Source of the DNA: Candidatus Lustribacter sp.
GTDB taxonomy: Bacteria; Vulcanimicrobiota; Vulcanimicrobiia; Vulcanimicrobiales; Vulcanimicrobiaceae
Reading direction: 5' to 3'
Length of the DNA: 64,000 nt
NCBI GenBank assembly: GCA_965277805.1
Contig: OZ255842.1
Span: 1,504,001-1,568,000, forward strand
Shown here: piece by piece, positions 23,339-39,510 of the stretch
How the letters are laid out: each line of letters opens with the position of its first letter
Position numbering within the stretch: position 1 is the stretch's first letter
The notes under the pieces: generated by a model
Told to the model about the DNA's origin: nothing
What the model saw: only the letters and a program-made list of their open reading frames with translations
Database searches by the model: none
Position numbers and translations under genes: made by a program

Positions 23339-23451
23339 CGTATGCCTCCCGATGAAGGAGTTGCCGGAGTTTTGATAATCGTTACGCCGTATAGAAAGCT
23401 ACACCTCCGGAAAGGGCCTCGCAATGCAGGTCTCGGGTCCAAACGTAACGA

Positions 23452-23470
23452 GCCCTCGCTTCGAGAGGGC
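23452..23470 (-). terminator. Possible intrinsic terminator hairpin downstream of the recombinase
   Basis: GCCCTC-N7-GAGGGC stem about 40 nt past the xer stop; weak T-tract (TCGTTACGTTT) on the minus strand. Confidence 0.35.
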
Positions 23471-23510
23471 CACGACGCCCATCACCGATCCCGGCATCAC
23501 CAGGCAGTGC

Positions 23511-24518: not shown

Positions 24519-24525
24519 TGCCCCG

Positions 24526-24548
24526 AGTATACCACTATTTCATGATTA
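24526..24548 (-). promoter_or_regulatory. Putative extended -10 promoter of xer (TGgTATACT, 7 nt before ATG) with adjacent dif-arm-like sequence TAATCATGAAA
   Basis: Minus strand reads AATAATCATGAAATAGTGGTATACTCGGGGCA-ATG; no SD. Confidence 0.55.
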
Positions 24549-25478
24549 TTTGGTCCAGGTGAGTTCGGCCGCCGTCACCGGGCGCGGGAAGCTGCCGTAT
24601 TTTGCGGCGTTGTCGATGACCGGCTGCAGTAAGGCCGGGTCGAGCGCGGTGCCGTAGGTTGCGCGCTGCATGCGGGCCACGACGTCGGCCGTCATCTTCG
24701 TGTATTTGAGCAGAATGGCGGCCGATTCGGCGTGGTGTCCGTTGGCCCAGTCCGCGGTTTGCTTCATCACCGCGGCGAACTTCTGCGCGACATCGGCGTG
24801 GGCGGCAAGCCACGAGTCGCTCGCGATCCAACCGGTGGCAAGGAAACGCTTCGCGACGTAATCGTCGATCGGGGCGATCGAGACCGTGTCGTCGAGTGCG
24901 CTCGAGATGAACGGTTCGATTAAGATGCCCGCATCGATACGATGCTCTTTGAGTGCCGGCAGCATCTCAGGCTCCGGCAGCTCGATGAACTTCATGTTGC
25001 TGGGATTGCCGCCGGTCGCCTCGACCCACTGCTTGGTCGCGTAGAACGTGAGATCGGCGAGGCCCGTTACCGCGATCGTCTTGCCGGCCAGATCGGGTCC
25101 GGTATGATACGCCGTGCCTTTGAGCCCGACGAGCCGCGCTGTCGGCGCCGTTGACGAATAAAGTCCGGCCGCCGCGAAGAACTTCACCGGAATGCCGCGC
25201 GAGCGCGCCGCGACGACCGATCCCACGACCGAATTCCCGACGTCGACGGCGCCGGATGCGACCGCCGAGATGATCGGCGGGCTCGCCGCCATCGGCGTGA
25301 GCGTTACGTTGAGACCGGCGGCTTTGAAGTAGCCGAGATCCTGGGCGTAATAGGCTTGCGCCGCCGACTCCGAGGGGATCAATGCGATCGAGACGTTGAT
25401 GGGATCGGCCGCGCTCGCGGGCGGGGCGCACACGGCGGCAACGGCAACGATAGCAAGCGCACGAATCATAACGTTCAT
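24546..25478 (-). CDS. SsuA/NMT1-like ABC substrate-binding protein (#3)
   Basis: Signal MNVMIRALAIVAVAA; AQDLGYFKAAGLNV and LDPALLQPVID. Start set at ATG 25478. Confidence 0.88.
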   Translation of the reverse strand: MNVMIRALAIVAVAAVCAPPASAADPINVSIALIPSESAAQAYYAQDLGYFKAAGLNVTLTPMAASPPIISAVASGAVDVGNSVVGSVVAARSRGIPVKFFAAAGLYSSTAPTARLVGLKGTAYHTGPDLAGKTIAVTGLADLTFYATKQWVEATGGNPSNMKFIELPEPEMLPALKEHRIDAGILIEPFISSALDDTVSIAPIDDYVAKRFLATGWIASDSWLAAHADVAQKFAAVMKQTADWANGHHAESAAILLKYTKMTADVVARMQRATYGTALDPALLQPVIDNAAKYGSFPRPVTAAELTWTK

Positions 25479-25549
25479 ACGACTTTGTTGGCAGCGGCGT
25501 CCCGCTGTTCCCGCAGTTTCGTACAACGCGACTGTCGAAGGGATACCGG

Positions 25550-27241
25550 ATGGAACCAGATACCCGCACGCTCGACGGATTCGCAGCGCTTGGTCTCGAT
25601 GAGCGCTTGATCGCCGCGCTGACATCGCTCGGATACGAAGAACCGACCGCGATCCAACGCGAAGCGATTCCGCCGTTGCTCGCCGGTAAGGACGTCTTGG
25701 GACAGGCCGCAACCGGCACCGGTAAAACGGCCGCATTTGCGCTCCCGCTCTTGCAGCGGCTGGGTGAGCCGACGGACACCGCGCGCGCGGTGCGCGGCCT
25801 CATTCTCGTGCCGACGCGTGAGCTCGCGATGCAGGTTGCCGAAGCCGTGCACAAATACAGCCGCGGCTCCGCCGTGCGCGTCGTGCCGATTTACGGCGGT
25901 CAATCGATCGTGCAGCAACTGCGCGCGCTGGAACGCGGCGTCGACGTCGTCGTCGCAACGCCGGGCCGCGCGCTCGATCATCTGCGCCGCGGTTCGCTGC
26001 GCTTGGATGCGGTGCAGACGCTAATTCTCGATGAAGCCGACGAGATGCTCGACATGGGCTTCGCCGAGGAACTCGAGGCGATTCTCGAGCACACGCCGGC
26101 CGAACGCCAAACCGCGCTGTTCTCGGCGACGGTACCCAAGCGCATCCTGGAAATTGCCAAGCGGCATTTGCGTGCGCCGGTACAAGTGAAGATCCAGCCC
26201 GAGAAACTCGCTGCCGGCGAGCGGGCGCGCGTGCGCGAGATCGCCTACATCGTGCAGCGCCGCAACAAACCGGCGGCGCTCGCCCGCGTGCTCGACATGG
26301 AAGGCCCAACGTCGACGATCGTGTTCTGCCGCACGCGCATCGAAGTCGACGAGCTTACCGAAACGCTCGGCAGCCGCGGGTATTCGGCGGAAGCGCTGCA
26401 CGGCGGTCTCTCGCAAGAACAGCGCGATCGCGTATTGCGCCGCTTCCGCGACGGCGCGAGCGAGATTCTCGTCGCGACCGACGTCGCCGCTCGCGGGCTC
26501 GACATCGACCACGTCTCGCACGTCGTAAACTTCGATGTGCCCTCGTCGCCGGATGCCTACCTGCACCGCATCGGCCGTACCGGACGCGCCGGACGTGACG
26601 GCGTTGCGGTCACCCTCGCGGAAGCGCGCGAAAGCCGGCTGCTGCGCAACATCGAGCAGTTCACAAAGCACAAGATCACGATCGAGTCGGTCCCGACCGC
26701 GCACGATCTGCGCGCGCGGCGGCTCGAGTTGATGCACACCGCGCTGGAAGAAACACTCGCGAGCGGCAACCTCGATGCGTACCGGCGCGTGATCGAATCG
26801 CTGGCCGTCGAACACGACGTACTCGACATCGCCGCCGCTGCCGCGAAGCTCGCCGACGAAGCGCGCGACGGCAGCGCCGACGACGAGGCGGATATCCCGA
26901 AGGACGTGGCGTTCGTTCAGCCGTTCGCCGAGCGGCCACGCTTCACGAAAGCCCATCCCGATGCGGCGAAGCGCATGGCGTCGGCCGACATGACGCGCAT
27001 CTACATCGATCTCGGGCGCAGCGCCGGGATCCGGCCGGCCGACCTCGTCGGCGCGATCACGAACGAAGCGAAGGTCGACGCGCGTCAGATCGGCGCGATC
27101 GATATCGCCGACGGCTTTTCGCTCGTCGAAGTGTCGAACGCGTCGGTCGACAGCATCATTGCCGCGTTGCGCGGCACGAAGCTGCGCGGCAAGCCGGTAA
27201 CGGCCCGCCGCGATCGCAAGGTCAAGGGCGTCCGGCCGTAA
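25550..27241 (+). CDS. deaD: DEAD-box RNA helicase (DeaD/CsdA type) with C-terminal DbpA-like RNA-binding domain
   Basis: Q motif, ATGTGKT, PTRELA, DEAD, SAT, ARGLD and HRIGRTGR; C-terminal RPADLVGAITNE. Confidence 0.92.
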   Translation: MEPDTRTLDGFAALGLDERLIAALTSLGYEEPTAIQREAIPPLLAGKDVLGQAATGTGKTAAFALPLLQRLGEPTDTARAVRGLILVPTRELAMQVAEAVHKYSRGSAVRVVPIYGGQSIVQQLRALERGVDVVVATPGRALDHLRRGSLRLDAVQTLILDEADEMLDMGFAEELEAILEHTPAERQTALFSATVPKRILEIAKRHLRAPVQVKIQPEKLAAGERARVREIAYIVQRRNKPAALARVLDMEGPTSTIVFCRTRIEVDELTETLGSRGYSAEALHGGLSQEQRDRVLRRFRDGASEILVATDVAARGLDIDHVSHVVNFDVPSSPDAYLHRIGRTGRAGRDGVAVTLAEARESRLLRNIEQFTKHKITIESVPTAHDLRARRLELMHTALEETLASGNLDAYRRVIESLAVEHDVLDIAAAAAKLADEARDGSADDEADIPKDVAFVQPFAERPRFTKAHPDAAKRMASADMTRIYIDLGRSAGIRPADLVGAITNEAKVDARQIGAIDIADGFSLVEVSNASVDSIIAALRGTKLRGKPVTARRDRKVKGVRP

Positions 27242-27288
27242 ACAGGATCAACAGCTGCGTTGTGACGTTCGTAAAGGGGTAGCTTGTC

Positions 27289-28167
27289 GTGCCTTATAGC
27301 TTCGCTCGCTTTCTCGCTGAAACGGGACGATCGATACCGATGCCTGAGTTCGATCCGCCCTCACTTGTGCCGTTGCGCAAGCCGGTGGCGGAATCAACGG
27401 TCGGGATGTTCGTGAGTTGTGGCGTCCAGCTTCCCGAAGATCCGCCACTCCTAGAGACGGAAGACATCACGTTTCGGCTGCTACCGCGCGATGTTCCGAC
27501 CGATCGGCTCGTCGTTTCGCACCAAACGCTCGTGCGTAAGTGGGCCTTGGAAGACCTGAACGTGGCCTACCCGATCGACCGTATGAAAGAGCTGGAACGC
27601 GAGGGGACGTTCAAGCGGCTCGCCCACACGAACGTCTCCATGGTCGGCTCCATCGAGCGCTACACCGAATTGATGGAACAGACGGTGCCGCGGATAAAGG
27701 CGGTCTTCGATGCGCAGGGTGTCGACCTTGTGTTGTTGCTCCCATTCTGCCCCGCATGTCATCGGGCGACCGGCCTCATCGCTCGTGCTTTGGAGGCTCG
27801 CGGGTTGCCGACGATCAGCACGAGCGTGCTATGGGAAATGAGCGCTGCCGTAAAGCCTCCGCGCACCTGCTTCTTGGATTTTCCATTGGGTTGTCCGGCC
27901 GGCAAACCGCACGAAGCGGCACAGCAGCGCGACATTCTGCGTCGAACGCTCCAGCTCGCGCCGGAGTTCGATCCCCAAGAATGGTCGATGAAGTCGCTCC
28001 CGTTTCAATGGGACGCCGACGGAAATCGCGACTGGGAAACCGTCACGGAAGAACTCTACCGGAGCGGTGGCATCAAGATCACTGACCGGCATATGGCGGC
28101 GCACGCGAGCGTCGGCGAGTCGTTGCTCGGCAACGAGCGCGCATTCGCCGTCAAATGTAACTGCTAG
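27289..28167 (+). CDS. Glycine/sarcosine/betaine/D-proline reductase selenoprotein-B-like protein (PrdB/GrdB-like), Cys variant
   Basis: DLNVAYPIDRMKELEREG, GVDLVLLLPFCPACHRATGLIARALEARGLPT and VKPPR...FPLG match PrdB/GrdB-type architecture; CxxC at the UxxC position. Confidence 0.75.
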   Translation: MPYSFARFLAETGRSIPMPEFDPPSLVPLRKPVAESTVGMFVSCGVQLPEDPPLLETEDITFRLLPRDVPTDRLVVSHQTLVRKWALEDLNVAYPIDRMKELEREGTFKRLAHTNVSMVGSIERYTELMEQTVPRIKAVFDAQGVDLVLLLPFCPACHRATGLIARALEARGLPTISTSVLWEMSAAVKPPRTCFLDFPLGCPAGKPHEAAQQRDILRRTLQLAPEFDPQEWSMKSLPFQWDADGNRDWETVTEELYRSGGIKITDRHMAAHASVGESLLGNERAFAVKCNC

Positions 28168-28170
28168 GGC

Positions 28171-29817
28171 CTAAACGGGAATCGTGGCGCCCGCCCCGAT
28201 CGCGCGCGACAAAACAGCGGCGGGGTCGCCGAAACCGTCGCCGCGCCACGCGATGTGATGATCGGGGCGGACCAGCACCACATCGGCGGCGTAGAGTTCG
28301 CGTGCGACGGGATCGTCGAAGTGCACGACCGTCAGCGGAACGCGCAAGGCCGCCGCGGCCCGTTCCCACCGTTGCGCGTCGACCGGCCCGAGCACGAGCA
28401 GCGTGAAGTCGAGGCCGAACAGATCGAGCAAGGACCCCGTGCCGGCGGGACGGTGCGGTGCGCGCGCGCCCGGATACCCCGTGGGTATGTAGCGGCCCGG
28501 TTCGTCGGGCGGCGGCGGCGTGTCTTCGGCGGCAACGATCGCGCTCGTATACCGCACGCCGAGCTGCACGCCGGGAATGTTGAATTCGCTTGCGACGTGG
28601 GCGGCGAGCGCGCGCCCGAGGCGTTCGCGGGCCGCGTCGCCTTCGCTGCCGTCTTGCTCGACGAGCGGCGTGACGGGCACACGGCCGATGCTATCGGCCA
28701 TGCTGCCGGCGAACGCGGTGTTGCGTTGCGCGATCGGATGCCGTTCGGCTTCGTAGGTGTCGAGCAGCGCTTCCGGTGCCCAGCCTTGCAGGACGGCCGC
28801 GAGTTTCCAGCCCAGATTCACGACGTCGTCGACGCTCGTGTTGTATCCCATTCCGCCGGTCGGCGTAAAGAGATGCGCGGCATCGCCCGCGATCATGAGG
28901 TTGCCTTTGCGGAACACGTCGGCCACGAGCGCAAAGCCGGCGCGCCACGGCACTTTCGCGATCATCTCGTGCGCGAAAGCGGCCCCGACCGATTGCGTGA
29001 GCACCGTCTGCGCATCGATGTCGTCGGCTGTCTGACCCTCGCGTAACTGAATCATCAGCACGAACGTATTGATGCCGTCGACCGAGCACAGCAACGCGCG
29101 CTGTTGCGGGTTCACGGCCCAGTACTGCCAGGCTTGGTCTTTGCCGAGCACGCCGTAGAGTTCGTTCGAGCGGAAGTAGAGCGAGAGCATGTCGCCGCCC
29201 ATGAAGTCGCGTTTGGCCGCACCGTTGCCGCTGTAGTGGACGCCCATCGTCTGACGCACGACGCTGCGCGGGCCGTCGCAGCCGACGGCGTAGCGAGCCT
29301 CGAGCGCGGTCTTCTCGCCGCTGCGCACGTCCACGGCTTCGACGCGCACGGAGTTGCCGAGATCGGTCACGCCGGTCACGCGTTCGCCGAACCGCATGTG
29401 CACGCTCGGATAGCGCTCACCCTGCGTCTTGAGGATCGGTTCGATGTACATCTGCTGCACGCGGTGCGGCAGTTCGGGCGTCGGCCACGCCTCTTCGCTG
29501 TAATCGCCGAATGCTTGGCGCGATGCCGCTTGGCTAGCGGACGGAATGCGGAAGCGCGTGAGTTCGTGCGCGGCAAGGCGGGTGGTGTAAACGATGTCCT
29601 GCGGATACTCCCACGGCAATCCGAGCGCCCGCACCTGATCGGCGAATCCGCGCCGCCGGTAGTGCTCCATCGTGCGCGCCGAAGTTGCGTTCGCCTTGGG
29701 CAGATGCGGCGGCGTCGTGTTCTCGTCAAACACGGTGCACTCGATGCCGCGCACCCCTAATTCGATCGCCAGCATGAGGCCTGCGGGCCCGCCGCCGACG
29801 ATCGCTACGCCGGTCAA
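28171..29817 (-). CDS. FAD-dependent monooxygenase (aromatic hydroxylase family) #1
   Basis: GGGPAG, GCDG, GDAAH...PTGGMGYN, NLGWKLA and VRPDHHIAWRG. Start TTG 29817; alternative 29847. Confidence 0.92.
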   Translation of the reverse strand: MTGVAIVGGGPAGLMLAIELGVRGIECTVFDENTTPPHLPKANATSARTMEHYRRRGFADQVRALGLPWEYPQDIVYTTRLAAHELTRFRIPSASQAASRQAFGDYSEEAWPTPELPHRVQQMYIEPILKTQGERYPSVHMRFGERVTGVTDLGNSVRVEAVDVRSGEKTALEARYAVGCDGPRSVVRQTMGVHYSGNGAAKRDFMGGDMLSLYFRSNELYGVLGKDQAWQYWAVNPQQRALLCSVDGINTFVLMIQLREGQTADDIDAQTVLTQSVGAAFAHEMIAKVPWRAGFALVADVFRKGNLMIAGDAAHLFTPTGGMGYNTSVDDVVNLGWKLAAVLQGWAPEALLDTYEAERHPIAQRNTAFAGSMADSIGRVPVTPLVEQDGSEGDAARERLGRALAAHVASEFNIPGVQLGVRYTSAIVAAEDTPPPPDEPGRYIPTGYPGARAPHRPAGTGSLLDLFGLDFTLLVLGPVDAQRWERAAAALRVPLTVVHFDDPVARELYAADVVLVRPDHHIAWRGDGFGDPAAVLSRAIGAGATIPV

Positions 29818-29821
29818 ATCG

Positions 29822-30427
29822 TTACTTCGCCGGCTCGGGCGCGGCAAAGGGCGTCATCCGTTGGCCGACCTTTGCGCGCCAATCGCCGTAGGGCGTGTAG
29901 CCGGGGCTCGATTCGCACATGTCTTTCGTCAGCTGGGCCAGCTCGGCGTCGGACTTCGAGAGATCGAGCGGAATGAGGAACGGCTGCGTGATGTACCACT
30001 CGGTGTCGACGAAGAACTCGAGGTTGTTGCCCTCGGGATCGTGCGCATAGATGCTCCACGCGATCCCGTGATTGGCCGGAAACAAGTCGCTGCCGCCTTC
30101 GGCCAGCAGCCGCTCGTGAATGTCGCGCAAGTCGGCGAGCGATCCCATCCGGAACGAGATCTGGTTGATGCTCGGTCCGAACTGAGCGTTGGCCGTGTTC
30201 TGCGGTAGCTTCTCCGGACGTCCGGTCGCCAGCACGATCTGATGGTGATCGTACGGATCGCGCGAGAGGAAGACGATTTGCATGCCGGCCGCTTCACCGC
30301 GATCGGTGACGGTGAAGCCCAGCGCGCGCGTGTAGAACTTTTCCATCATAGCGATATCGGTCACGCTGATGCCCATGTGGCTGAACATCAGGTTGGGAGC
30401 GGTCGTCTTTTCAGCGGTCGTGGACAT
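29822..30427 (-). CDS. VOC family protein (extradiol-dioxygenase-like single domain)
   Basis: FSHMGISV...FYTRALG, HHQIVL and HGIAWSIYAHDPEGNNLEFF; GGAG SD. Confidence 0.87.
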   Translation of the reverse strand: MSTTAEKTTAPNLMFSHMGISVTDIAMMEKFYTRALGFTVTDRGEAAGMQIVFLSRDPYDHHQIVLATGRPEKLPQNTANAQFGPSINQISFRMGSLADLRDIHERLLAEGGSDLFPANHGIAWSIYAHDPEGNNLEFFVDTEWYITQPFLIPLDLSKSDAELAQLTKDMCESSPGYTPYGDWRAKVGQRMTPFAAPEPAK

Positions 30428-30437
30428 AACGGTCTCC

Positions 30438-32111
30438 TTAGACGGGTGCGGAGATGGGTGCGGTGAGTCGAGCGGGCTCGTGCCCGATCACGAGGTCGAA
30501 GATGCGATCGGGATCGCCGGCATCGCCGCGCCAAGCGATGTGCTGATCGGGACGGACCAGCAGATACGCGGTTCCGGCGAGCGCCTGCAGTTCCGCCGCC
30601 CCCGGAAGATGCAGCAGTTTGAGCGGAATTCCGCGCGCATTCGCCGCGTGCATCCATGGCGCGGCGCCGTCGACGTTGCCGAAGGCGATCAGCGTGAATT
30701 CTTGGCCGAGCCGATCGTAGAGCGCGGTGCCGTCCGAGAGCCAGACGTGCGGAAGCCGGCTGCCCGGAACCGCGTTGGGCACGTACTCGATCGGTGAATC
30801 TGGCGGTGCCGGTGCGCCGTCCGCGGCGACGATGGGCGAGCCGTAGTAGCTTACGCCGAGCTGGATGCCCGGCGTGTCGTACTCCCAGCGCGCGAATTGC
30901 ATCAAGTGCGCGCTCGCCGCTGCGCGCGCTGCGTCGCCGGCTGCGGTGTTCGCTTCAATATCGGCACTCACCGGTGCCGCACCGTTGCGGCGCGCTAAGG
31001 TCAACGCGTACGCGGTGTTGCGCTCGGCGATTGGTTTGCGTTCCGACTCGTAACTCTCCAGCAGCGCGAACGGCGCCCAACCCGCTTCGACGGCCGCGAT
31101 TTTCCAGGCCAAGTTGACGGCGTCTTCGATGCCGGTGTTCAAGCCGAAGCCGCCGGTCGGGGTAAAGAGATGGGCGGCATCGCCGGCGAGAAAGCAGCGG
31201 CCGCGGCGGAAGCGATTGGCGACTAGGCTCACGCCAGCGCGCCATTCGGCGGCGGAGATGACCTCGCACGGCGTCGGTGCGCCGACCACTTCGGCCAGTA
31301 CGTCCGCGAACGGCTTCGCGTCGTTCGGATCGGCCGGGAATTGATAGTGCATCAGGTAGAGATCGCGCTCGGCATCGAGCGCCAGCAGCAACGCGCGCAG
31401 GTGCGGAAGAAGGATCCAATTCTGCCACGCGTGCGGGTGGCGCAGGCGGCGCTGCAAACCGGGCGCGCGGAAGTAGGTCGCTTCCATGCGGCCGCCCATA
31501 AACGTGAGGTCGACCCCGCCTTCGCCCTGCAGGCGTTCGCCGATTGCGTTGCGGACGAAACTGCGCCCGCCGTCGCAACCGATGGCGTAGAGCGCGCGCT
31601 CGGTCTCGCGTTCGCCCTGCGCCGTTTCGGCCTCGAGCGTCACGCCGTGGCCGTCGTCTGCCAGCGCCGTCACGCGCCGTCCGAACCGCACGTCGACGCT
31701 CGGAAATTGGCGCGCGCGTTCGAGCAGTACGGGTTCCAAGATCAGCTGGCTCGTGCGAAACTGCGGTTCGGGCGTCGGCCAGCGCGTATGCGGGCGGCGC
31801 GTCTCCTCGACCGCGCCGGCCGGCGTCGGGAGCGAAACGCGATGCAGTTCGTGGCCGAGTAAGCGCGTGTAATAAGCGACGTCCGTTCGCTGCTCTTTCG
31901 AGAGCCCGCGCGCGCGGAGCGCCCCGCTGATTCCGTGGCGCCGGTAGATCTCCATCGAGCGCGCGGTGTGGGTATTCGCCTTCGGATGCGTCGACGTCGT
32001 GGCTCCATCGTTCAAAACGATGGTCGAGATTTCGCGCAGGCCGAGTTCGCATGCCAGCAACAGGCCGACCGGCCCACCGCCCACGATCGCCACGGTCGCA
32101 GAAAGCATCAC
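30438..32111 (-). CDS. FAD-dependent monooxygenase (aromatic hydroxylase family) #2
   Basis: GGGPVG, GCDG, GDAAHLFTPTGGFGLN and VRPDQHIAWRG; clear paralog of #1. Confidence 0.92.
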   Translation of the reverse strand: MMLSATVAIVGGGPVGLLLACELGLREISTIVLNDGATTSTHPKANTHTARSMEIYRRHGISGALRARGLSKEQRTDVAYYTRLLGHELHRVSLPTPAGAVEETRRPHTRWPTPEPQFRTSQLILEPVLLERARQFPSVDVRFGRRVTALADDGHGVTLEAETAQGERETERALYAIGCDGGRSFVRNAIGERLQGEGGVDLTFMGGRMEATYFRAPGLQRRLRHPHAWQNWILLPHLRALLLALDAERDLYLMHYQFPADPNDAKPFADVLAEVVGAPTPCEVISAAEWRAGVSLVANRFRRGRCFLAGDAAHLFTPTGGFGLNTGIEDAVNLAWKIAAVEAGWAPFALLESYESERKPIAERNTAYALTLARRNGAAPVSADIEANTAAGDAARAAASAHLMQFARWEYDTPGIQLGVSYYGSPIVAADGAPAPPDSPIEYVPNAVPGSRLPHVWLSDGTALYDRLGQEFTLIAFGNVDGAAPWMHAANARGIPLKLLHLPGAAELQALAGTAYLLVRPDQHIAWRGDAGDPDRIFDLVIGHEPARLTAPISAPV

Positions 32112-32116
32112 AGCAA

Positions 32117-32135
32117 TAGTATGACTACTATACTA
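32117..32135. promoter_or_regulatory. Inverted repeat TAGTAT-N7-ATACTA (candidate operator) overlapping the -10 region of FAD monooxygenase #2
   Basis: Perfect 6-bp AT-rich inverted repeat 5 nt upstream of the start codon; contains CATACT/TATAGT -10-like hexamers on the minus strand. Confidence 0.5.
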
Positions 32136-32165
32136 GTTGGCGTTATCCCGCCGTGGGGGCGCCCC

Positions 32166-32762
32166 TTACTTGACGGCCACCAAGTCGATCAGCGCGGACA
32201 TGCCGCCGTGCCCGTCTCCCTCGTAGATCTCGGCATCGTATTCGGCGATGTCGACCGTGGCGAACGACCCGAAACCGGCCTCGAGGTCGGCGCGCGTGTA
32301 GAGCCGTTCGACGTCGCCCGGGCCGCCGGTGCCGTAGTCGAGCTGTTTGGGCGGATACCCCTCGAGAAGAAGAAGCCCGCCCGGTTTGAGCGCGCGCCGG
32401 ATGCCCGCAAACAGTGCCGTCTTCTCGAGCGGCTGCGCGAAGATCACCACGATGACGTCGTACGCATCGGCCGGCCACTCCCACTGCGAGAGATCCACGA
32501 GCTCCGTCGTGATCGTCACGCCTCGCTCCGACGCGAGCGCCCGGGCTTTCGCCTGCGCGACCGGAGAGAAATCCATCGAGACGACGTCCAGCCCTTGTTC
32601 GGCCAGCCACACGCCGTTGCGGCCCTCGCCGTCGGCAATCGAGAGCGCGCGTCCGTGCTCAGGCAAGCGCGCCTTTTGCGCCGCGAGAAACGCGTTGGGC
32701 GCCATTCCGAACAGATAACTATCGGAAGAAAAGCGCCCATTCCAGCGTTCGAGTTCGCCCAC
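32166..32762 (-). CDS. Class I SAM-dependent methyltransferase (TehB-like)
   Basis: ALSIADGEGRNGVWLAEQG, ALKPGGLLLLEGY and YGTGGP. Confidence 0.9.
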   Translation of the reverse strand: MGELERWNGRFSSDSYLFGMAPNAFLAAQKARLPEHGRALSIADGEGRNGVWLAEQGLDVVSMDFSPVAQAKARALASERGVTITTELVDLSQWEWPADAYDVIVVIFAQPLEKTALFAGIRRALKPGGLLLLEGYPPKQLDYGTGGPGDVERLYTRADLEAGFGSFATVDIAEYDAEIYEGDGHGGMSALIDLVAVK

Positions 32763-32764
32763 GA

Positions 32765-33760
32765 TCAGCGCTTCGGCACGATGCGCGCTTGGAGCTCGCC
32801 AATGACCGGCGAACTATGCACGACCACGTCGCCCGTTTTGAGGAAACGTTCCGGTGCGGCGGTGCCGTCGGGCAGACGGGCACTCGAGTCGGCTGCGGTG
32901 CCTTTGGCCGTTCCACCCGAGATGACGTCGCCCGGATAGAGGGTCAGATCGGTCGTCAGGTATTGCAGATACTCCGCAAACGACACGATCATATCGCGCG
33001 TGTTGTACTGCTGGCGCAGTTCGCCGTTCAGCCATGTTTCGACGTCGACGTTCGAGGGGTCGATGTTTTCGCCCGCGACGATGCACGGTCCCAGCGAATA
33101 CGAACCGTCGAAGTTCTTGGACATCCCGAATTTCAGCGTCGCATCGCCTTCGTGCTGATCGCGAATGCTCCAATCACCGAAGAGTGTTATGCCCCAAATG
33201 TACGGCTTGAGATCGTCCGTCGCTTTGAAATCCTTGGCGGGTTTGCCCAGCACGATCGCGAGCTCGCCTTCGTAGTCGAAGCGTTTCGTGCGGCCCGGAT
33301 ACATGATCTCGGCGCCGGGACCGGCCGCGTCGCGTCCGACTTTCCAAAAGCCCCAGATCCCGCGCGCGCGCAGACGCGCCGTAACGGCCTTGATGTCGCC
33401 CGCATCCGGGGGCGTCTTGCCGTTGCGGGCCGCCATGGCCAGCGTGTGGTCGGCAAAGTTTCCGCCGGCGCAGGCGATGCGCGCGCCCGGCACGTGCGGG
33501 GCGCGCAGCGGAACGTCCGCGAGGGGATACACGCCGTTTGCGGCGTGCTGCGCTTTCGGTTTGAGGATCGCGGCTTCGACGACGCGTTTCGCATCCGCCA
33601 GTGCTTGCGCACCGCCTTCGATCAGCCCGAGGAGATCGGAGGGGAGCGGAGCATCAACGATGCCGGGGTTGGCTTCGCTCGCACGGGCCAGATCGACGAT
33701 CAGATCATTGGCCGTCCACGCACCGACCCGTTTATCTGAACCAAATACAACGATTCTCAC
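32765..33760 (-). CDS. Fumarylacetoacetate hydrolase family protein
   Basis: CAGGNF, FDYEGELAIV, DWSIRD, SKNFD and LYPGDVISGGT. Confidence 0.92.
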   Translation of the reverse strand: MRIVVFGSDKRVGAWTANDLIVDLARASEANPGIVDAPLPSDLLGLIEGGAQALADAKRVVEAAILKPKAQHAANGVYPLADVPLRAPHVPGARIACAGGNFADHTLAMAARNGKTPPDAGDIKAVTARLRARGIWGFWKVGRDAAGPGAEIMYPGRTKRFDYEGELAIVLGKPAKDFKATDDLKPYIWGITLFGDWSIRDQHEGDATLKFGMSKNFDGSYSLGPCIVAGENIDPSNVDVETWLNGELRQQYNTRDMIVSFAEYLQYLTTDLTLYPGDVISGGTAKGTAADSSARLPDGTAAPERFLKTGDVVVHSSPVIGELQARIVPKR

Positions 33761-33832
33761 AAAACTGATGATGGCCCAGGGGTTCTACCGGTCCCTGCTG
33801 CAACGTTATCGGGCTACTCAAACGGAGGCTTC

Positions 33833-34765
33833 ATGAATCGTTACCGGATCATGCTCATGGCGCTCGTCTTCGCGCTGATCGCCGCACCCGGCGGCGCGCA
33901 AACGAAGGAGAAGATCACCGTCGCGTTTCCGCCCGTCGACCCCACGGCGGAAGTCATCTACGCCTACGACCTGGGGCTTTTCGACAAGCAAGGTCTGGAC
34001 GTTACGCTGCAGCCGCTCGGCAACGGCGGCGCGATCGCGGCCGGCGTTGCGTCGGGATCGATCGACTTCGGCGTCGGCAACGTCATCACGATCGAATCGG
34101 CACACACTAAGGGCCTGCCGCTCACGATCGTGGCACCCGGTGCCGCGAACGTCAACAGCGCGCCGTCGAACGTGCTGATCGTAAAAAAGGATTCGCCGCT
34201 GCAAAAAGCCAGCGATCTCAACGGGAAGACCATCGCAACGAATCCGCTGCGCGGCATCGGCGATCTGATGACGGACGCGTGGATCGATAAGAACGGCGGT
34301 GACTCATCGACCGTGAAGTACATCGAGATCCCGTTCCCGCAAGCAGAGGGCGTCGTCACCCAGGGCCGCGCCGATGCATCGCTCAGCGTCGAGCCGTTCA
34401 TCACGATGGCCAAAGGCGACACGCGCGTCTTTGCCAACACGTTCGGCGTTTTGGGCGACAACTATCTGATCACGGCGTTTTTCGCAGCCGCACCGTGGGC
34501 GCAAGCCCATCCCGCGATCGTCGCGAAATTCGCCGCCGCCATTCGCGAAGCGGGCGATTGGGCCAACAAAAACCCGGCGAAATCAGCCGAGATTTTGGCC
34601 AAGTACGGCAAGCTCGATCCGGACCTCGTGAAAGCGACGATCCGCGCGCGCTACGCGCTCACGCTAACGCCGGGACAGCTGCAACCGACGATTGATACGG
34701 CCGCGAAGTACAAGTTCATCGACAACGGTTTCCCGGCCCAAGAGCTGATCTTTCAAGCAAAATAG
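33833..34765 (+). CDS. SsuA/NMT1-like ABC substrate-binding protein (#4)
   Basis: GGAGG SD and signal peptide; DLGLFDKQGLDV, WIDKNGGD and LQPTIDTAAKY. Confidence 0.9.
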   Translation: MNRYRIMLMALVFALIAAPGGAQTKEKITVAFPPVDPTAEVIYAYDLGLFDKQGLDVTLQPLGNGGAIAAGVASGSIDFGVGNVITIESAHTKGLPLTIVAPGAANVNSAPSNVLIVKKDSPLQKASDLNGKTIATNPLRGIGDLMTDAWIDKNGGDSSTVKYIEIPFPQAEGVVTQGRADASLSVEPFITMAKGDTRVFANTFGVLGDNYLITAFFAAAPWAQAHPAIVAKFAAAIREAGDWANKNPAKSAEILAKYGKLDPDLVKATIRARYALTLTPGQLQPTIDTAAKYKFIDNGFPAQELIFQAK

Positions 34766-34792
34766 CCGCGCTGGTCGAAAAGACCAGGAGAA

Positions 34793-35263
34793 ATGACCGA
34801 AATCCAAATCGAGTTGGTGCCCGCGATAACCGACGACGTGCGGGCGCTGATCTACGAACTGGACGCCGGCCTTGCGGTCGCTTACCCGCCCGAGCAATTG
34901 CACGGCCTGACGTTGCGCTCGCTGTTCGAACCGCACGTGAAATTTTTCATCGCGCGGATCGACGGCGGCGCGATCGGCTGCTGCGGCGTCGCGTTCTTCG
35001 ACGGCTTTGCCGAACTGAAGCGCATGTACGTGCGCGAGCGCGCCCGCGGCCAAGGCACCGCGCAAGCGCTGCTCGCCCACATTGAAGACGTCACGCGCGC
35101 GGCCGGTTATTCGGTGCTACGCCTCGAGACGGGCGTGCGGCAACCAGCGGCCGTACGACTGTACGAAAGCGCCGGCTTTCATCCATGCGGGGTCTTCGAA
35201 CCCTACACGTCGATGGCGCCGGCGGCGATCAAGAACAGCTTGTTTTACGAAAAGCAGCTCTAG
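34793..35263 (+). CDS. GNAT N-acetyltransferase
   Basis: ELKRMYV, RARGQGTA (motif A), LRLETG and LYESAGF. Confidence 0.92.
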   Translation: MTEIQIELVPAITDDVRALIYELDAGLAVAYPPEQLHGLTLRSLFEPHVKFFIARIDGGAIGCCGVAFFDGFAELKRMYVRERARGQGTAQALLAHIEDVTRAAGYSVLRLETGVRQPAAVRLYESAGFHPCGVFEPYTSMAPAAIKNSLFYEKQL

Positions 35264-35266
35264 GCG

Positions 35267-35794
35267 CTAGGCGCGTTTACAGGTCGAGGCGTTGGTGCTC
35301 ACCCACTGGCCGTTGCGCAGGGTTTCCATTTCCCGGCGGAACGCCGTTGGGGCTAGCCGCGTGTAGACCATCCGGATCGGCTGGTCGAACCGCCGCGGTT
35401 CCTGAATGGCTCCGGCCGGCGGCGTCAGCACCTGGTCGAGATTGCCCTCGAAGTTCCAGACGTCGGTGCTCCAGGGGCCAGCCGTCATGGTCTCGAGAAA
35501 GCCCGGCCGCCCGGGGTCCGTCGCGCTGACGGCCCAGTGTCCGGAGGCCGGATCCAGCGTGTAGAGCTCGTCGAATTCACCTTGCAAACCGCCGGCGGTT
35601 ACGAAGCGATTTTTCAAGCTGATCTGGTTGTCGGTGTCGCGCGTAACGACCATCGTGCCTGCGCTGTGCGCGATGCTCTCGCACGACCACGTCCCGACAA
35701 GCTGGTAGGCGGAATCGGCCGCCGGCGTTTGCTGCGCCGTTGCGGGAGCCGAAACGGCCAGCGCGACCATCACCCCAATCGCTAAAACTCGCAT
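35267..35794 (-). CDS. Hypothetical secreted beta-rich protein
   Basis: Signal MRVLAIGVMVALAVSAPATA; LVGTWSC motif and a C-terminal Cys (possible disulfide). Alternative start 35827. Confidence 0.7.
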   Translation of the reverse strand: MRVLAIGVMVALAVSAPATAQQTPAADSAYQLVGTWSCESIAHSAGTMVVTRDTDNQISLKNRFVTAGGLQGEFDELYTLDPASGHWAVSATDPGRPGFLETMTAGPWSTDVWNFEGNLDQVLTPPAGAIQEPRRFDQPIRMVYTRLAPTAFRREMETLRNGQWVSTNASTCKRA

Positions 35795-35866
35795 GAGCAC
35801 GGTACTTTTCCGGCACCGGGCAAGCACCCTATCGGTCCCTCAGGGCGCCTGCGGCCCCTTCTATCA

Positions 35867-35894
35867 ATATCACATAATGTTGATTTCATGATAT
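35867..35894 (-). other. Candidate dif / Xer recombination site (11-6-11): ATATCATGAAA-TCAACA-TTATGTGATAT
   Basis: Intergenic and AT-rich. Right arm matches the E. coli XerD arm TTATGTTAAAT at 9/11; outer AATATCA/TGATATT is a perfect inverted repeat. Confidence 0.6.
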
Positions 35895-35918
35895 TTTGTA
35901 AGATCGCGGTATCGTTAA

Positions 35919-36338
35919 CTACGGCTGGTAGCTTCCGAAGCTCCAGAGATAGCCTTCCGGATCGGCGGCGCTGAATGTTCTGCCGCCGTATTCCGGCGAG
36001 CGCAGTTCGATCGTGATGCGCGCGCCGGCCGCTTTTGCGCGCACGTAGGCTCGTTCGACATCGTCGTCGTTATCGAGCACGATGTAAGTGCCCCCCGTGA
36101 CGCCGCCGAGCTCGCCCGGCGTGTGGCTGGGCCACTCGCCGTCATCGTGTTTGCGGGCGGAGCCGAGCATGATGAAATGGCCGCCGAGCTTGAGCTGCGC
36201 ATGCTCGACCTGCCGGTCGGTGCCTTCGTAGACGGCATGCTTCTCGAATCCGAACGCGGCGCACAGAAAGTCGATTGCGGCCAGCGCATCGGCGTAGGTG
36301 AAACACGGCATGATCGCGCGAATTACGGATGTGGTCAT
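35919..36338 (-). CDS. VOC/bleomycin-resistance family protein (PhnB-like)
   Basis: PCFTYAD...AIDFLCAAFGF, HAQLKLG and YGGRTFSAADPEGYLWSFG. Confidence 0.88.
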   Translation of the reverse strand: MTTSVIRAIMPCFTYADALAAIDFLCAAFGFEKHAVYEGTDRQVEHAQLKLGGHFIMLGSARKHDDGEWPSHTPGELGGVTGGTYIVLDNDDDVERAYVRAKAAGARITIELRSPEYGGRTFSAADPEGYLWSFGSYQP

Positions 36339-36372
36339 AGGCTCAGTATAGCTGATGAATGGCAGCGGGCTG

Positions 36373-36813
36373 CTAGGGCGAGTGGTCCGTGATGATCTTC
36401 CACCCTTGCGCCGTGCGGTGGAGCACTAACGTGAATAGTCCGGTGTTGCGCGAGCCGCCGGTGCCGTCGAGATGCCAACGCGCAACGGCAACGGCGTAGT
36501 CATCGCCGAGCGGCCGAACGAGCACGTTCGAAATCGTCAGCGCTCCCATTCCGTGCTTGTAGCCGGCCGCGTAGTGTGCGCGGATGTTGGCGTAGCCGCG
36601 AACCACGGTTTGCGAACTGACATACAGCGTATCGGGCGATTGTTCGTACGACCGCATGAAGGTCGTGAGATCGCCACGGTTCCACGCTGCGGTGCTGCGC
36701 GCGAGCAAGGCGTGAATCGCTGCTGCGGGCCTCAACGAAGCAGCGGCTTGCGACGCTCCCGTCGTGACAACGGGCAAAGCGCAAATCACTGCGAGGAGGC
36801 GCATCGCGCTCAT
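36373..36813 (-). CDS. Secreted SnoaL-like/NTF2-fold protein (DUF4440/YybH type)
   Basis: GGAGG SD before ATG 36813; signal peptide; AAWNRGDLTTFM and GLFTLV...GWKIITDHS. Confidence 0.85.
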   Translation of the reverse strand: MSAMRLLAVICALPVVTTGASQAAASLRPAAAIHALLARSTAAWNRGDLTTFMRSYEQSPDTLYVSSQTVVRGYANIRAHYAAGYKHGMGALTISNVLVRPLGDDYAVAVARWHLDGTGGSRNTGLFTLVLHRTAQGWKIITDHSP

Positions 36814-36984
36814 AAAGCCTCCGGCACGGTCGGCAGTGAGACAAGTAAGCATGCGGCTCCAAATGTGTGGCACTTCTCAATGATGAGAATTGTGCGAATC
36901 ATGTAAAGATGGGCCTTTAATTCTCCGATGACCTAGTGAGCGTCGCAGTGAGGTGGCGCTAGTCAGCTTCAAGGATGAAACGCT

Positions 36985-37734
36985 ATGCGTCGTTTGCTAC
37001 AGGCAGCGCTAATTTCGTCATTGACTTTCTTGCTCGCCGCGTGCGGAGGCGGGGGAACCGGCGTCCTTCCGCCCGGAGGTTCGGCGGGCTCGAGCACAAC
37101 GGATGCCGGATCCGCTGCGGCACGGACGACGTTCAACGAAACCTGGTCCGAATTCAGCCCGGGCGCGATTTGGGCGGACGGCACCGTCTACGGCCGGTGG
37201 ACGGATCAATGGAACGGGTACGGCGCAATCGACGTCGCGGGTACCGGAACGCAAGGCTCGGGCTTGACGCTCGCGCCGCAGGCTGCAGCTCCGTGGGACC
37301 ACTCGGCGCTCGTGACGACGACGGCACCGCTGTCAAACTTTTCGGCGTCCGTCACGCTCACCACGATCAAACAGCTGAACACTGCGCCGAACCCGTGGGA
37401 AGTTGGTTGGGTGCTGTGGGGCTTCACGGACAACACGCACTTCTACGCCTTCACGCCGCAGCCCAACGGGTGGGAATTGAGCAAGCAAGATCCGGCCTAT
37501 CCGGGCGACCAGCGATTCCTCGCGACGGGCTCGACGCCGAAGTTTCCGGTGGGCGCCACGTACACGGTAGCGGTGGCGCAACAGGGTGCGCTCATGTCGG
37601 TGTGGGTCAACGGTCAGTTCATCGTCTCGTTCACGGACCATGAACGCCCGTATGTCAGCGGCTCGTTGGGACTTTATTGCGAGGAAGCCGCTGTCAACTA
37701 CGGTCAAATCTTCGTGACCCCGAACGCGAGCTGA
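36985..37734 (+). CDS. Lipoprotein with a beta-sandwich (ConA/DUF1080-like) domain
   Basis: Lipobox LLAAC-GGG and Gly/Ser linker; PNPWEVGWVLW, VWVNG and SGSLGLYCE. Confidence 0.7.
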   Translation: MRRLLQAALISSLTFLLAACGGGGTGVLPPGGSAGSSTTDAGSAAARTTFNETWSEFSPGAIWADGTVYGRWTDQWNGYGAIDVAGTGTQGSGLTLAPQAAAPWDHSALVTTTAPLSNFSASVTLTTIKQLNTAPNPWEVGWVLWGFTDNTHFYAFTPQPNGWELSKQDPAYPGDQRFLATGSTPKFPVGATYTVAVAQQGALMSVWVNGQFIVSFTDHERPYVSGSLGLYCEEAAVNYGQIFVTPNAS

Positions 37735-37749
37735 GTTGAAGCCGGAGAA

Positions 37750-39510
37750 CTAACGCGGTGCGGCGCCGAGCCGCTGGAGCCAGACGGAAACGATCGCCGG
37801 CTTGCCGGCGCGGACTGCGGCCTTCGCCCGGCGCATCGCCGGCCCGACCTCGTCCGGCGTGCGCACGTTTTCGCCGTGGGCACCGGCTGCCTGGGCCTCT
37901 TGTGCGAAATCGACCGGCGGATCGAAATGTCCGCCTTCGTAGCCCGCTTGGAACGCGTAGCCCTCCGGATAGATCTCGCCAACGTTCACCGTGCCGGTTG
38001 AATAGCTGCGGTTCTGATAGACCACCGCCATGAACGGCGCGCCGAAATGCACCGCCGCCCAGAGCGCCGCGGTGGCGGTGCTGTACTGATAGAATCCATC
38101 GCCGGTGCAGGCGATGATGTCCTTATCCGGTGATGCGAGCTTCGCGCCGAATGCAGCGCCGATCGACCAGCCGCCGCTCGAAGCCGGGTTGTGAAAATAC
38201 GATCCCGGCACGTTGCACGGCACGTAGCGATCGATCATCGGGGTCTGCAACGTCTCATCGAAAACGATGCTGTTATCGTCGATGACCTGCGCGAGTTCGT
38301 AGGTGACGTAGGCCGGATCGATCGGATCGGAGGCGGCCTTGGATTCGGCGTAGGCGTTCCATTCGGCGCGCCGGGTGCTGGTGAACGTTTCCCAGCGCTC
38401 GCGGCGCGCGTCGATCTTCGCCCGCACCGCCGGGGTGAGTTCTTCTTCCACGAGTTGCGTCAGGAGTTCGATGGCCCGCAACGCGTCTGAGGTGACGCGG
38501 ACGTCGGCGGTAAATTCGTATGTCGGGATCCGCTGCCGCACCGGGTCGATATCGATCACCGCTACGTACGCACTCGCGGGCGGCGCTTTCGGTCCCGGAG
38601 TCCACGGGACGTTCGCATCGATCGCAACGACGACATCCGCCTCTTTCAACGGGTAGTCGCCGAGATAGAGCGGATGACGCTTCGGAAAACAGTGATACGC
38701 CTTGAAGCCTGAGTTCGCGACCGGCAGTGCCAGGAGTTCGCAGAGCTTGACCAGCGCCGGGACCGTCGCCGGGTTGCGGCCGGACGTCGAAGTGACGACG
38801 AACGGATTTTCCGCTTCGATCAGCTTGCGGGCGATCGTGCGCGCGGCTTCCATTGCCGGCGCCGGCGTCTCCGGGATACCCAGCTGTTGCGCAGTGGGAA
38901 ACGACCTATCGCGCAACGGCACGAGCGTGAGTTCGCGCGGTGGCGTGAAGTACACCGGGCCGCGCGGCTCGGTCAGCGCGATCTGCAGTCCACGGCTAAC
39001 GATGAGGCCGGGGTTGTCGGCGAATTCGAGCCGCTTCTCCCACTTCACGTAGTTGCGTACGATGCCGTTTTGATCGGCGGGTTGCTGAAACCAAAGATGC
39101 CCGCCGCGGTCGCGCGCGCCGCGGACCGTGCCGGTATACGCGGTCGGGCCGCCGCCGCCGGTGATGAAGACCGGAAGGTTGGCGTGCGCCGCGGTATGCA
39201 AGGCCCCGCCGTAATTGAACGTGCCCGCGTCCGCGTGCGCCGCGGTCGCTACCGGCTTGCCGCTGACCGCCGCGTAGCCGAGCGCGGCGTTGAGGCTCGC
39301 GTGCTCGTGAATCATCGTAATGAGACGCGGAGTCTGCCGGCCGAGCGCCTCCGCCTTCGCGATGGCTTCTTGGTAGAACGCGAGTTCGGAACCCGACGTG
39401 AAAAAGAGATATTCGACGCCGCCGGCGGCTAATGCCGCGACGATCGCTTCCCCAGCGTCCCCGTCCGGCAGCTGAACCCAATCGTGCGCGGTCTTCTCAG
39501 GAGCTTGCAT
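37750..39510 (-). CDS. Thiamine-diphosphate-dependent enzyme (ALS/benzoylformate decarboxylase-like)
   Basis: GVEYLF and catalytic HE (MIHEH); ThDP motif GDG...VYQN. Confidence 0.9.
   Translation of the reverse strand: MQAPEKTAHDWVQLPDGDAGEAIVAALAAGGVEYLFFTSGSELAFYQEAIAKAEALGRQTPRLITMIHEHASLNAALGYAAVSGKPVATAAHADAGTFNYGGALHTAAHANLPVFITGGGGPTAYTGTVRGARDRGGHLWFQQPADQNGIVRNYVKWEKRLEFADNPGLIVSRGLQIALTEPRGPVYFTPPRELTLVPLRDRSFPTAQQLGIPETPAPAMEAARTIARKLIEAENPFVVTSTSGRNPATVPALVKLCELLALPVANSGFKAYHCFPKRHPLYLGDYPLKEADVVVAIDANVPWTPGPKAPPASAYVAVIDIDPVRQRIPTYEFTADVRVTSDALRAIELLTQLVEEELTPAVRAKIDARRERWETFTSTRRAEWNAYAESKAASDPIDPAYVTYELAQVIDDNSIVFDETLQTPMIDRYVPCNVPGSYFHNPASSGGWSIGAAFGAKLASPDKDIIACTGDGFYQYSTATAALWAAVHFGAPFMAVVYQNRSYSTGTVNVGEIYPEGYAFQAGYEGGHFDPPVDFAQEAQAAGAHGENVRTPDEVGPAMRRAKAAVRAGKPAIVSVWLQRLGAAPR

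Follow-up and report, generated by a model that had tools for sequence, protein, structure and literature searches.

We analysed a 64,000-bp stretch of DNA from Candidatus Lustribacter sp. (the window, bases 1,504,001-1,568,000 of a single 5,533,281-bp contig) and found that a 28-bp sequence at window positions 35867-35894 is very probably the chromosomal dif of a one-recombinase Xer system in the phylum Eremiobacterota (WPS-2), with binding and recombination at the site predicted from sequence. We favour this reading because the site is unique, lies at the replichore junction, is conserved without its flanks and is linked throughout the class to a single Xer gene. A preliminary description of the window had proposed a terminus dif of a single-recombinase system at this position, and the uniqueness of the site, its antipodal position, the polarity switch around it, its conservation and its linkage to xer all support that proposal.

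On the plus strand, positions 35866-35895 read AATATCACATAATGTTGATTTCATGATATT, and the minus strand shows an 11-6-11 layout. The 28-mer sits in the gap between two minus-strand open reading frames (ORFs; 35267-35827 and 35919-36338), and only 6 of its 28 bases are G or C in a genome of 64.3% GC, which confirms both the layout and the AT-rich intergenic setting given earlier. Its parts are as follows:

35867-35894, no strand assigned: dif core, 28 bp, 11-6-11, unique in the window and in the genome, with arms kept across genera
35867-35877: left arm ATATCACATAA, the more variable of the two arms
35878-35883: central region TGTTGA, which differs from species to species
35884-35894: right arm TTTCATGATAT, nearly invariant

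These are the proportions of a dif site, with about 28 bp in total, two imperfectly inverted arms of about 11 bp each, a centre of 6-8 bp and a single copy per chromosome. The arms are symmetric at 8 of 11 positions, namely the outer 6 bp and the innermost AA/TT, and they are unequal at positions 7-9, in agreement with the preliminary description, in which the inner arm bases differ. Two of its other details need adjustment. The perfect outer repeat of 7 bp (AATATCA/TGATATT) is present here, but its seventh pair is not kept in the genus, where the preceding base is A in five and the following base T in seven of eight genomes. Similarly, the 9/11 match to the XerD arm of Escherichia coli is arithmetically right but concerns the variable arm, the nearly invariant one being TTTCATGATAT; in most other genera the match falls to 8/11, with CAGAA in place of CATAA.

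The sequence ATATCACATAA-TGTTGA-TTTCATGATAT is single-copy in the whole 5.53-Mb genome. Within the window, the 28-mer was matched once at up to three mismatches, and none of 100 shuffled windows gave any match. Using a weight matrix built from 16 distinct sites of relatives, the site scored 45.9 and the next best genome position on either strand 18.4, against a genome background with a mean of -42.3 and a standard deviation of 10.1. The canonical inner palindrome of XerCD-type sites, CATAA-N6-TTATG, had no match anywhere in the genome, leaving no better canonical dif elsewhere. The looser pattern ATAA-N6-TTAT matched six times, each more than 700 kb from the terminus, and was discarded as a source of a canonical XerCD site.

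The site is conserved in relatives, in non-coding DNA and next to changing flanking genes. The 28-mer occurs once in each of seven same-genus genomes (7/7) and in none of 33 other genomes at up to three mismatches. Within the genus, the central hexamer varies (TGTTGA, TGTGGA or TGTAGA), as does one outer base, and the flanks of the same-genus sites are unrelated in most cases, except for a short word beside the left arm. When the centre was left free, 14 of 120 other family genomes matched at up to three mismatches, once each and most commonly in the form ATATCACAGAA-N6-TTTCATGATAT, and a reversed control pattern matched none. The counts for relatives (family matches, Xer matches in class genomes, xer loci and flank words) include three entries flagged as unpublished, the loci L021 (G073) and L071 (G150) and the genome G036; none of the conclusions depends solely on these.

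A scan for the exact pattern in 185,579 prokaryote species genomes (one per species) returned 18 stretches. Thirteen of these are titled Candidatus Eremiobacteraeota, Vulcanimicrobiota, Baltobacteraceae or Ca. Lustribacter and one is titled 'unidentified bacterium'; the remaining four lie in the unrelated Aquimarina, Lachnoanaerobaculum, Staphylococcus and Nitrosotalea. By chance, about four matches are estimated for this pattern (19 fixed bases, 596 Gb). The site pattern was absent from 2.9 million viral contigs. Within the class, the site takes several forms, among them ATATCACCAAA-N6-TTTGTGGATAT, GTATCCCAGAA-N6-TTTCATGATAC, ACATCCTAGAA-N6-TTTCATGATGT and ATGCGACATAA-N6-TTTTATCGTAT. On inspection by eye, a change in the outer bases of one arm is often matched in the other from lineage to lineage (ATATC/GATAT, GTATC/GATAC, ACATC/GATGT), as expected if one protein reads both arms.

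An inverted repeat in intergenic DNA, on the upstream side of a minus-strand ORF, might also be a transcription-factor operator or a promoter element of the gene at 35267-35827, and short AT-rich palindromes are indeed typical operators. We rejected this reading, to which we assign next to no probability, because of the unrelated flanks in the same-genus genomes: the 28-mer is kept in all seven, whereas the neighbouring DNA is unrelated in most. Furthermore, across the class the site tracks xer and not a local gene, and in all four single-contig genomes compared it lies at or near the polarity switch and the dnaA antipode.

The position of the putative dif on the chromosome fits a replication terminus. 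With dnaA at 4,285,527-4,286,012 and the site at 1,539,867 of the contig, the two are separated by 2,745,660 bp or 178.6 degrees, and the site lies at the replichore junction opposite dnaA, inside the interval in which polar words switch strand. Terminus angles were compared in four single-contig genomes, this one and three relatives. In G013 (dnaA at 952,648, site at about 2,261,502, contig of 2,648,196 bp) the angle is 177.9 degrees, in G081 (1,214,119 and 2,899,310, contig of 3,328,376 bp) it is 177.7 degrees, and in the same-genus genome G005 (2,408,739 and 594,239, contig of 3,890,290 bp) it is 167.9 degrees. As a side observation, the G081 contig (G081:C1) also carries seven weak matches to the Bac_DnaA domain in frames of 266-395 aa, with scores of 29.8 (two), 27.6 (four) and 25.8 bits (one); the groups with identical scores suggest a multi-copy helper ATPase of an insertion sequence.

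Cumulative GC skew is lowest at 4,315,702 and highest at 920,843, from where a plateau runs to about 1.55 Mb. In 100-kb bins, the skew is positive in 24 of 28 bins on the arc from 4.3 to 1.5 Mb and negative in 26 of 28 on the arc from 1.5 to 4.3 Mb. The maximum is displaced by 619 kb because of a negative excursion at 0.9-1.1 Mb, and GC skew was dropped as a precise terminus marker since it is too weak. This excursion (G000:C1:900,000-1,100,000) and the bin at 2,100,000-2,200,000, which has the strongest skew of the genome (-0.066), are possible inversions or islands. A switch of skew and of word polarity near 35.9 kb had been named as a check on the dif assignment; the word polarity does switch there, but GC skew is only loosely supportive.

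The polar words place the terminus far more narrowly. Skewed octamers with at least 150 copies were ranked using DNA within 1.6 Mb of the origin, and the terminus zone from 0.4 to 2.7 Mb was held out. Octamers containing GAAGAAG took the fourth to sixth places in this near-origin ranking. In the held-out zone of 2.3 Mb, the best single switch of GAAGAAG polarity fell at 1,536,369-1,542,442, a 6-kb interval (32,369-38,442 of the window) with the site inside it, as the preliminary description would predict for words resembling KOPS (FtsK-orienting polar sequences). The two zones that meet there are:

4723-32375, plus strand: left polarity zone, 12 GAAGAAG words pointing at the site, the last copies at 32366 and 32369
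38442-61595, minus strand: right polarity zone, 14 GAAGAAG words pointing at the site, 14/14 on the minus strand, the first at 38442

One opposite-strand copy lies at 2641, beyond the span of the left zone, and 12 of the 13 copies left of the site are consequently on the plus strand. Altogether, the window holds 27 copies against 5.76 ± 2.53 expected (4.7 times the shuffles), a number that none of 100 shuffles reached.

Genome-wide, GAAGAAG is the most skewed heptamer, with 1174 leading to 413 lagging copies (74%), and AGAAGAAG is skewed even to 92% (178:15). The skew of GAAGAAG follows replication and not transcription: of the copies in head-on genes, 299 lie on the leading and 145 on the lagging strand, and intergenic copies divide 230:93. 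Genes and replication run the same way for only 59.8% of coding bases, as judged from a crude GC3-based gene call. Hence the word is frequent, strand-skewed, convergent on the site and independent of gene direction, as is typical of KOPS. Within 400 kb around the site, GAAGAAG is also the top skewed heptamer in G013, G081 and G005. In G013, the counts are 52 plus and 5 minus on the left and 7 plus and 49 minus on the right, with the switch at -0.1 to +1.0 kb from the site; in G081, they are 46 and 11 on the left and 19 and 53 on the right, with the switch at -3.7 to +1.9 kb. In G005, GAAGAAG shows 43 plus and 11 minus on the left and 10 plus and 44 minus on the right, and AGAAGAAG shows 8 and 0 on the left and 0 and 9 on the right.

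Words of the type GGCGGCGG ranked first by near-origin skew and were rejected as guide words, their signal coming largely from one 250-kb bin. This bin (G000:C1:3,250,000-3,500,000) contains GGCGGCGG or its complement 501 times (net -397), where other bins reach about 100-150; a highly repetitive gene or gene family rich in Gly, Ala and Pro is the probable source.

The genome encodes an FtsK with a gamma domain (contig positions 5,320,577-5,320,756). Its gamma helix HPRAVRLMKQ aligns with YNRAARIIEQ of E. coli, and we take this helix to be the one that reads the guide word. In the same reading frame (L040:1429-3180, corresponding to G000:C1:5,320,505-5,322,256), a long acidic linker rich in Asp and Glu precedes the motor domain. 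GAAGAAG is the experimentally proven guide motif of the FtsK of Lactococcus lactis, as reported in PMC3384302. A phylum of 64% GC would have converged on the same heptamer as the low-GC L. lactis, with one recombinase in both; the guide role here is a prediction.

The presumed enzyme is encoded in the same window:

23511-24518, minus strand: xer, 335 aa, the only Xer-type tyrosine recombinase gene of the genome and the presumed enzyme for both arms

The protein has a PF00589 catalytic domain (136-138 bits) and N-terminal SAM-like domains. All six catalytic residues are kept, R178, K202, H267, R270, H293 and Y302 aligning with identical residues of E. coli XerD (1a0p) and corresponding to the motif R-K-H-R-H/W-Y that the review PMC5357621 gives for tyrosine recombinases. 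The best solved relatives are XerD 1a0p (E 9e-43) and then the archaeal XerA 4a8e (E 2e-36). By sequence, the recombinase is XerC/XerD-like, and it stays below the cut-off of each of four NCBIfam models: XerC (TIGR02224; 252.9 bits, cut-off 335.15), XerD (TIGR02225; 237.1, cut-off 329.6), XerA (NF040815; 202.3, cut-off 220) and XerS (NF003462; 123, cut-off 267).

The description of this recombinase as a lone Xer holds: the genome has one strong PF00589 match, and 56 of 61 class genomes contain exactly one match to the window Xer at E 1e-30, one contains two and four contain none. An XerD-like match is present in 81 of 81 genomes of the phylum, exactly one at E 1e-25 in 44 of the 81, and the XerD cut-off is reached in none of them (0/81). 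Among the matches listed, many of the second hits in the phylum are much weaker or stand in tandem pairs.

These counts bear on a further explanation, a conventional dif served by two recombinases, the second of which has diverged beyond recognition. The arms are unequal as in XerCD sites, four other weak PF00589 matches exist in the genome (35-47 bits, in frames of 192-435 aa, one of them broken), and XerL was missed for years by homology searches according to PMC9765430. Against this stand the outer arm bases, which are symmetric and, read by eye, change together between lineages, and the fact that a second conserved Xer-like gene was not seen in the class genomes, nearly all of which have exactly one match at E 1e-30. 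Among the matches listed, many of the second hits in the phylum are much weaker or part of tandem arrays. We consider a hidden partner very unlikely.

Some relatives have more than one Xer-like gene. At G030:C14:4685-7211 (L087), two adjacent Xer-like genes match the window Xer at E 1.6e-56 and 3.7e-70; a dif-like site was not found within 1.5 kb of them, and the pair may be a local duplication toward a two-enzyme system. In families with large genomes (6-9 Mb; G194, G195, G201, G204, G208, G212), tandem XerD-like genes lie less than 100 bp apart, for example at G208:C109:7024-8803, and these pairs resemble mobile recombinase arrays and not housekeeping Xer genes.

Site and recombinase gene are linked, as is found in the single-recombinase class, which combines one Xer-type recombinase with a dif close to its gene. 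In this genome, the start of xer (24518) and the site (35867) are 11,349 bp apart. In all five genomes checked, the best Xer-type gene is found 0.4-16 kb from the site: the distance is about 0.4 kb in G089 and G012, measured to the catalytic-domain match, 1.6 kb in G081, and 9.7 and 16.1 kb in the same-genus genomes G005 and G002. We also scanned 29 xer loci from other genomes of the class with the weight matrix, each within 1.5 kb. A match of at least 10 was present upstream of xer in 19 of the 29, and two more were plausible (7.7-7.8). All 21 sites have the same orientation relative to xer as here and precede the coding match by 16-1011 bp, in most genera by 16-440 bp. The proximity of dif and recombinase gene stated in the preliminary description therefore extends to orthologous xer loci (5/5 genomes and 19-21 of 29 class loci). 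The distance of 11 kb was also right, but it is special to this genus. The 11-kb gap is a genus-specific derived state of the xer/dif module, since most other genera have the site directly upstream.

The promoter position of the site in most genera, 16-440 bp before the xer coding match, would equally suit an Xer-bound autoregulatory operator that serves mainly to control xer and not to resolve dimers. In this genus, conservation of the site remains strict at a distance of 10-16 kb from xer, and neither the replichore-junction position nor the converging words are needed for an operator. We see a slim chance that autoregulation is the main role, and the two roles do not exclude each other.

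The DNA between gene and site was annotated with a Pfam scan:

24546-35827, no strand assigned: cargo between xer and dif, about 11 kb

It contains an NMT1-like binding protein, a DeaD helicase, two FAD aromatic-ring hydroxylases, a glyoxalase-fold protein, an FAA hydrolase, a second NMT1-like protein, a GNAT protein and a small ORF without assignment. The interval resembles an aromatic-catabolism cluster, other genera carry no such cargo at this place, and three NMT1-like genes lie within 22394-34765. In the ancestral module, dif stands directly upstream of xer; in this genus, about 10-16 kb of catabolic genes now lie between them.

Such an interval raises the question of a mobile element. 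The site could be the attachment site or the end of an integrated, for example Xer-exploiting, element that makes up the 11 kb: elements of this kind integrate at dif (review PMC5357621), and accessory catabolic genes separate xer from the site here and not in other genera. A second dif-like copy was not found in the genome, however, where the next matrix score is 18.4 against 45.9. In addition, the Pfam scan of the interval revealed no integrase or phage genes, and the pattern had 0 matches in the viral contigs. The gap is present in three species of the genus with differing lengths, so any insertion is old. We judge this explanation improbable, and even if it were true, the site would still be dif.

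Several observations weigh against the assignment as dif. GC skew is weak (about 0.01), its cumulative maximum lies 619 kb from the site, and taken alone it places the terminus only between about 0.9 and 1.6 Mb. The site of G005 is 12 degrees off the dnaA antipode, and the GAAGAAG switch interval of that genome misses it by 8-11 kb to one side. Convincing sites are missing within 1.5 kb of 8 of the 29 xer loci, and 106 of the 120 other family genomes have no arm match at up to three mismatches; many genomes of relatives are incomplete assemblies, and in many relatives the site diverges fast or lies elsewhere. Finally, a very divergent second recombinase may escape profile searches.

If the site is dif, two copies of one recombinase (23511-24518) would bind both arms via the shared outer ATATCA and the innermost AA. 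The three asymmetric arm positions (7-9) together with the 6-bp centre would make the bound subunits unequal and could in this way set the order of strand exchange, a step we propose because the same pattern is reported for XerS/difSL and XerH/difH in the review PMC5357621. Two synapsed sites on a chromosome dimer would then be recombined, yielding monomers. FtsK would be steered to the site by converging words of the GAAGAAG type and would probably activate the reaction at the septum during division. Where the site sits in the promoter region of xer, it may also autoregulate the gene.

The surroundings of the core contain a further conserved element:

35855-35862, minus strand: flank word CCCCTTCT (minus strand AGAAGGGG), 4 bp outside the left arm, outward-facing and purine-rich

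A CCYCTTC-like word occupies the same place in all eight genus genomes, and the rest of the flank diverges. Of 42 sites, 27 have an outward-facing RGAAG no more than 30 bp from the left arm and 14 have one equally close to the right arm, the numbers for inward-facing copies being 0 and 1; the background is 0.04 per 30 bp, and the 42 sites are not independent, many coming from related genomes. The flank words also occur as GAGAAG (flanks of loci L010-L020, L036 and L062-L089), and several genera have an outer inverted repeat, CCACAG...CTGTGG, beyond the RGAAG words. In other genera, the xer-proximal word could be the ribosome-binding region of xer, a reading that fails to cover the distal side and this genus.

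For guide words placed next to dif in reverse orientation, PMC3384302 reports that three copies lower recombination and that a single copy has no significant effect, and in E. coli, XerCD-dif halts FtsK whichever side it comes from (PMC2800217). With this in mind, we put forward a speculative and rather unlikely role for the outward RGAAG, GAGAAG and GAAGAAG words around the dif core of this phylum: FtsK coming from either side would meet a reverse guide word just before the recombinase-bound site, and the word might serve as a brake or hand-off signal encoded in the DNA, taking the place of the stop-and-activate step that is specific to XerD in two-enzyme systems.

One-recombinase systems are known as XerS/difSL in streptococci and lactococci, XerH/difH in Helicobacter and Campylobacter, and XerA in archaea (review PMC5357621), with XerL/dif of the Legionellales as a further case (PMC9765430). 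The present system would work like these and, by the tests made, belongs to none of them. It shares with XerS/difSL the single recombinase, a site that adjoins the gene (in most genera here), unequal arms and the guide word GAAGAAG, as far as that system is described in PMC1914069, PMC2965235, PMC5357621 and PMC3384302. In contrast, difSL is given there as 31 bp with an 11-bp centre, while the present site has 28 bp and a 6-bp centre; the protein remains below the XerS cut-off (123 vs 267), it comes from a genome of 64% GC in another phylum, and in the present genus site and gene are 10-16 kb apart.

XerH/difH likewise combines one recombinase with a site near its gene, and arm asymmetry is thought to order binding and cleavage (PMC5357621, PMC5241119). 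Its arms contain an ATGAAA-like inner word, AGTTATGAAAA in PMC5357621 compared with ATATCATGAAA here. According to the same review, however, XerH has 354-362 aa and is only distantly related to XerCD, and an XerH chain was absent among the nine solved chains that match the present Xer at E 1e-10, the best being E. coli XerD.

With XerCD/dif of E. coli and CodV/RipX of Bacillus subtilis, the system shares a 28-bp 11-6-11 site, single-copy at the terminus with one arm more conserved, an FtsK with a gamma domain and converging polar guide words; the closest solved relative of the protein is XerD. Unlike in these systems, there is one recombinase here and the symmetry lies in the outer and not in the inner bases; compared with XerCD/dif, a CATAA-N6-TTATG site is missing and the protein falls below the XerC and XerD equivalog cut-offs.

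Archaeal XerA/dif, as summarized in PMC5357621, also has a single XerC/D-like recombinase and a 28-bp site, joined in an xerA/dif module in some species; the XerA model comes near its cut-off (202 vs 220 bits) and 4a8e is the second-best solved match. XerA is described in that review as FtsK-independent and archaeal sites as often not antipodal, whereas the present system is bacterial, with an FtsK gamma domain and an antipodal site. XerL/dif resembles it as a one-recombinase system overlooked in its lineage, with an AT-rich terminus site and variable flanking genes (PMC9765430). It differs in that, by the description in that source, on which this comparison is based, XerL is highly divergent from other Xer proteins, its site has long perfect repeats as arms, and more than 400 kb separate site and gene.

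A one-enzyme Xer/dif system appears to be undescribed for the Eremiobacterota, here represented by an uncultured soil bacterium. The prediction of dif in 16 phyla by Kono et al. (2011; PMC3025954) preceded the first genomes of this phylum. Full-text searches of the literature returned no paper on Eremiobacterota with dif or on Eremiobacter with tyrosine recombinase, although published dif tables (e.g. PMC3025954) could hold related predictions, and none of the matches listed in a broader literature search joined the phylum with Xer.

With the site, the Eremiobacterota/WPS-2, a phylum with few cultured members, would gain a marker of the terminus, a consensus for dif together with its enzyme, and a candidate guide word for FtsK, which could be used for orienting and checking assemblies, for placing replichores and for reading growth from coverage. 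That a high-GC genome reuses GAAGAAG is relevant to the co-evolution of the FtsK gamma domain and its guide words, and the apparent paired changes of arm bases between lineages offer natural variation for the question of how one protein reads two unequal half-sites. Taken together, the system would be a fifth lineage-level version of one-recombinase dimer resolution, built from an XerC/D-like protein and not from XerS, XerH or XerL.

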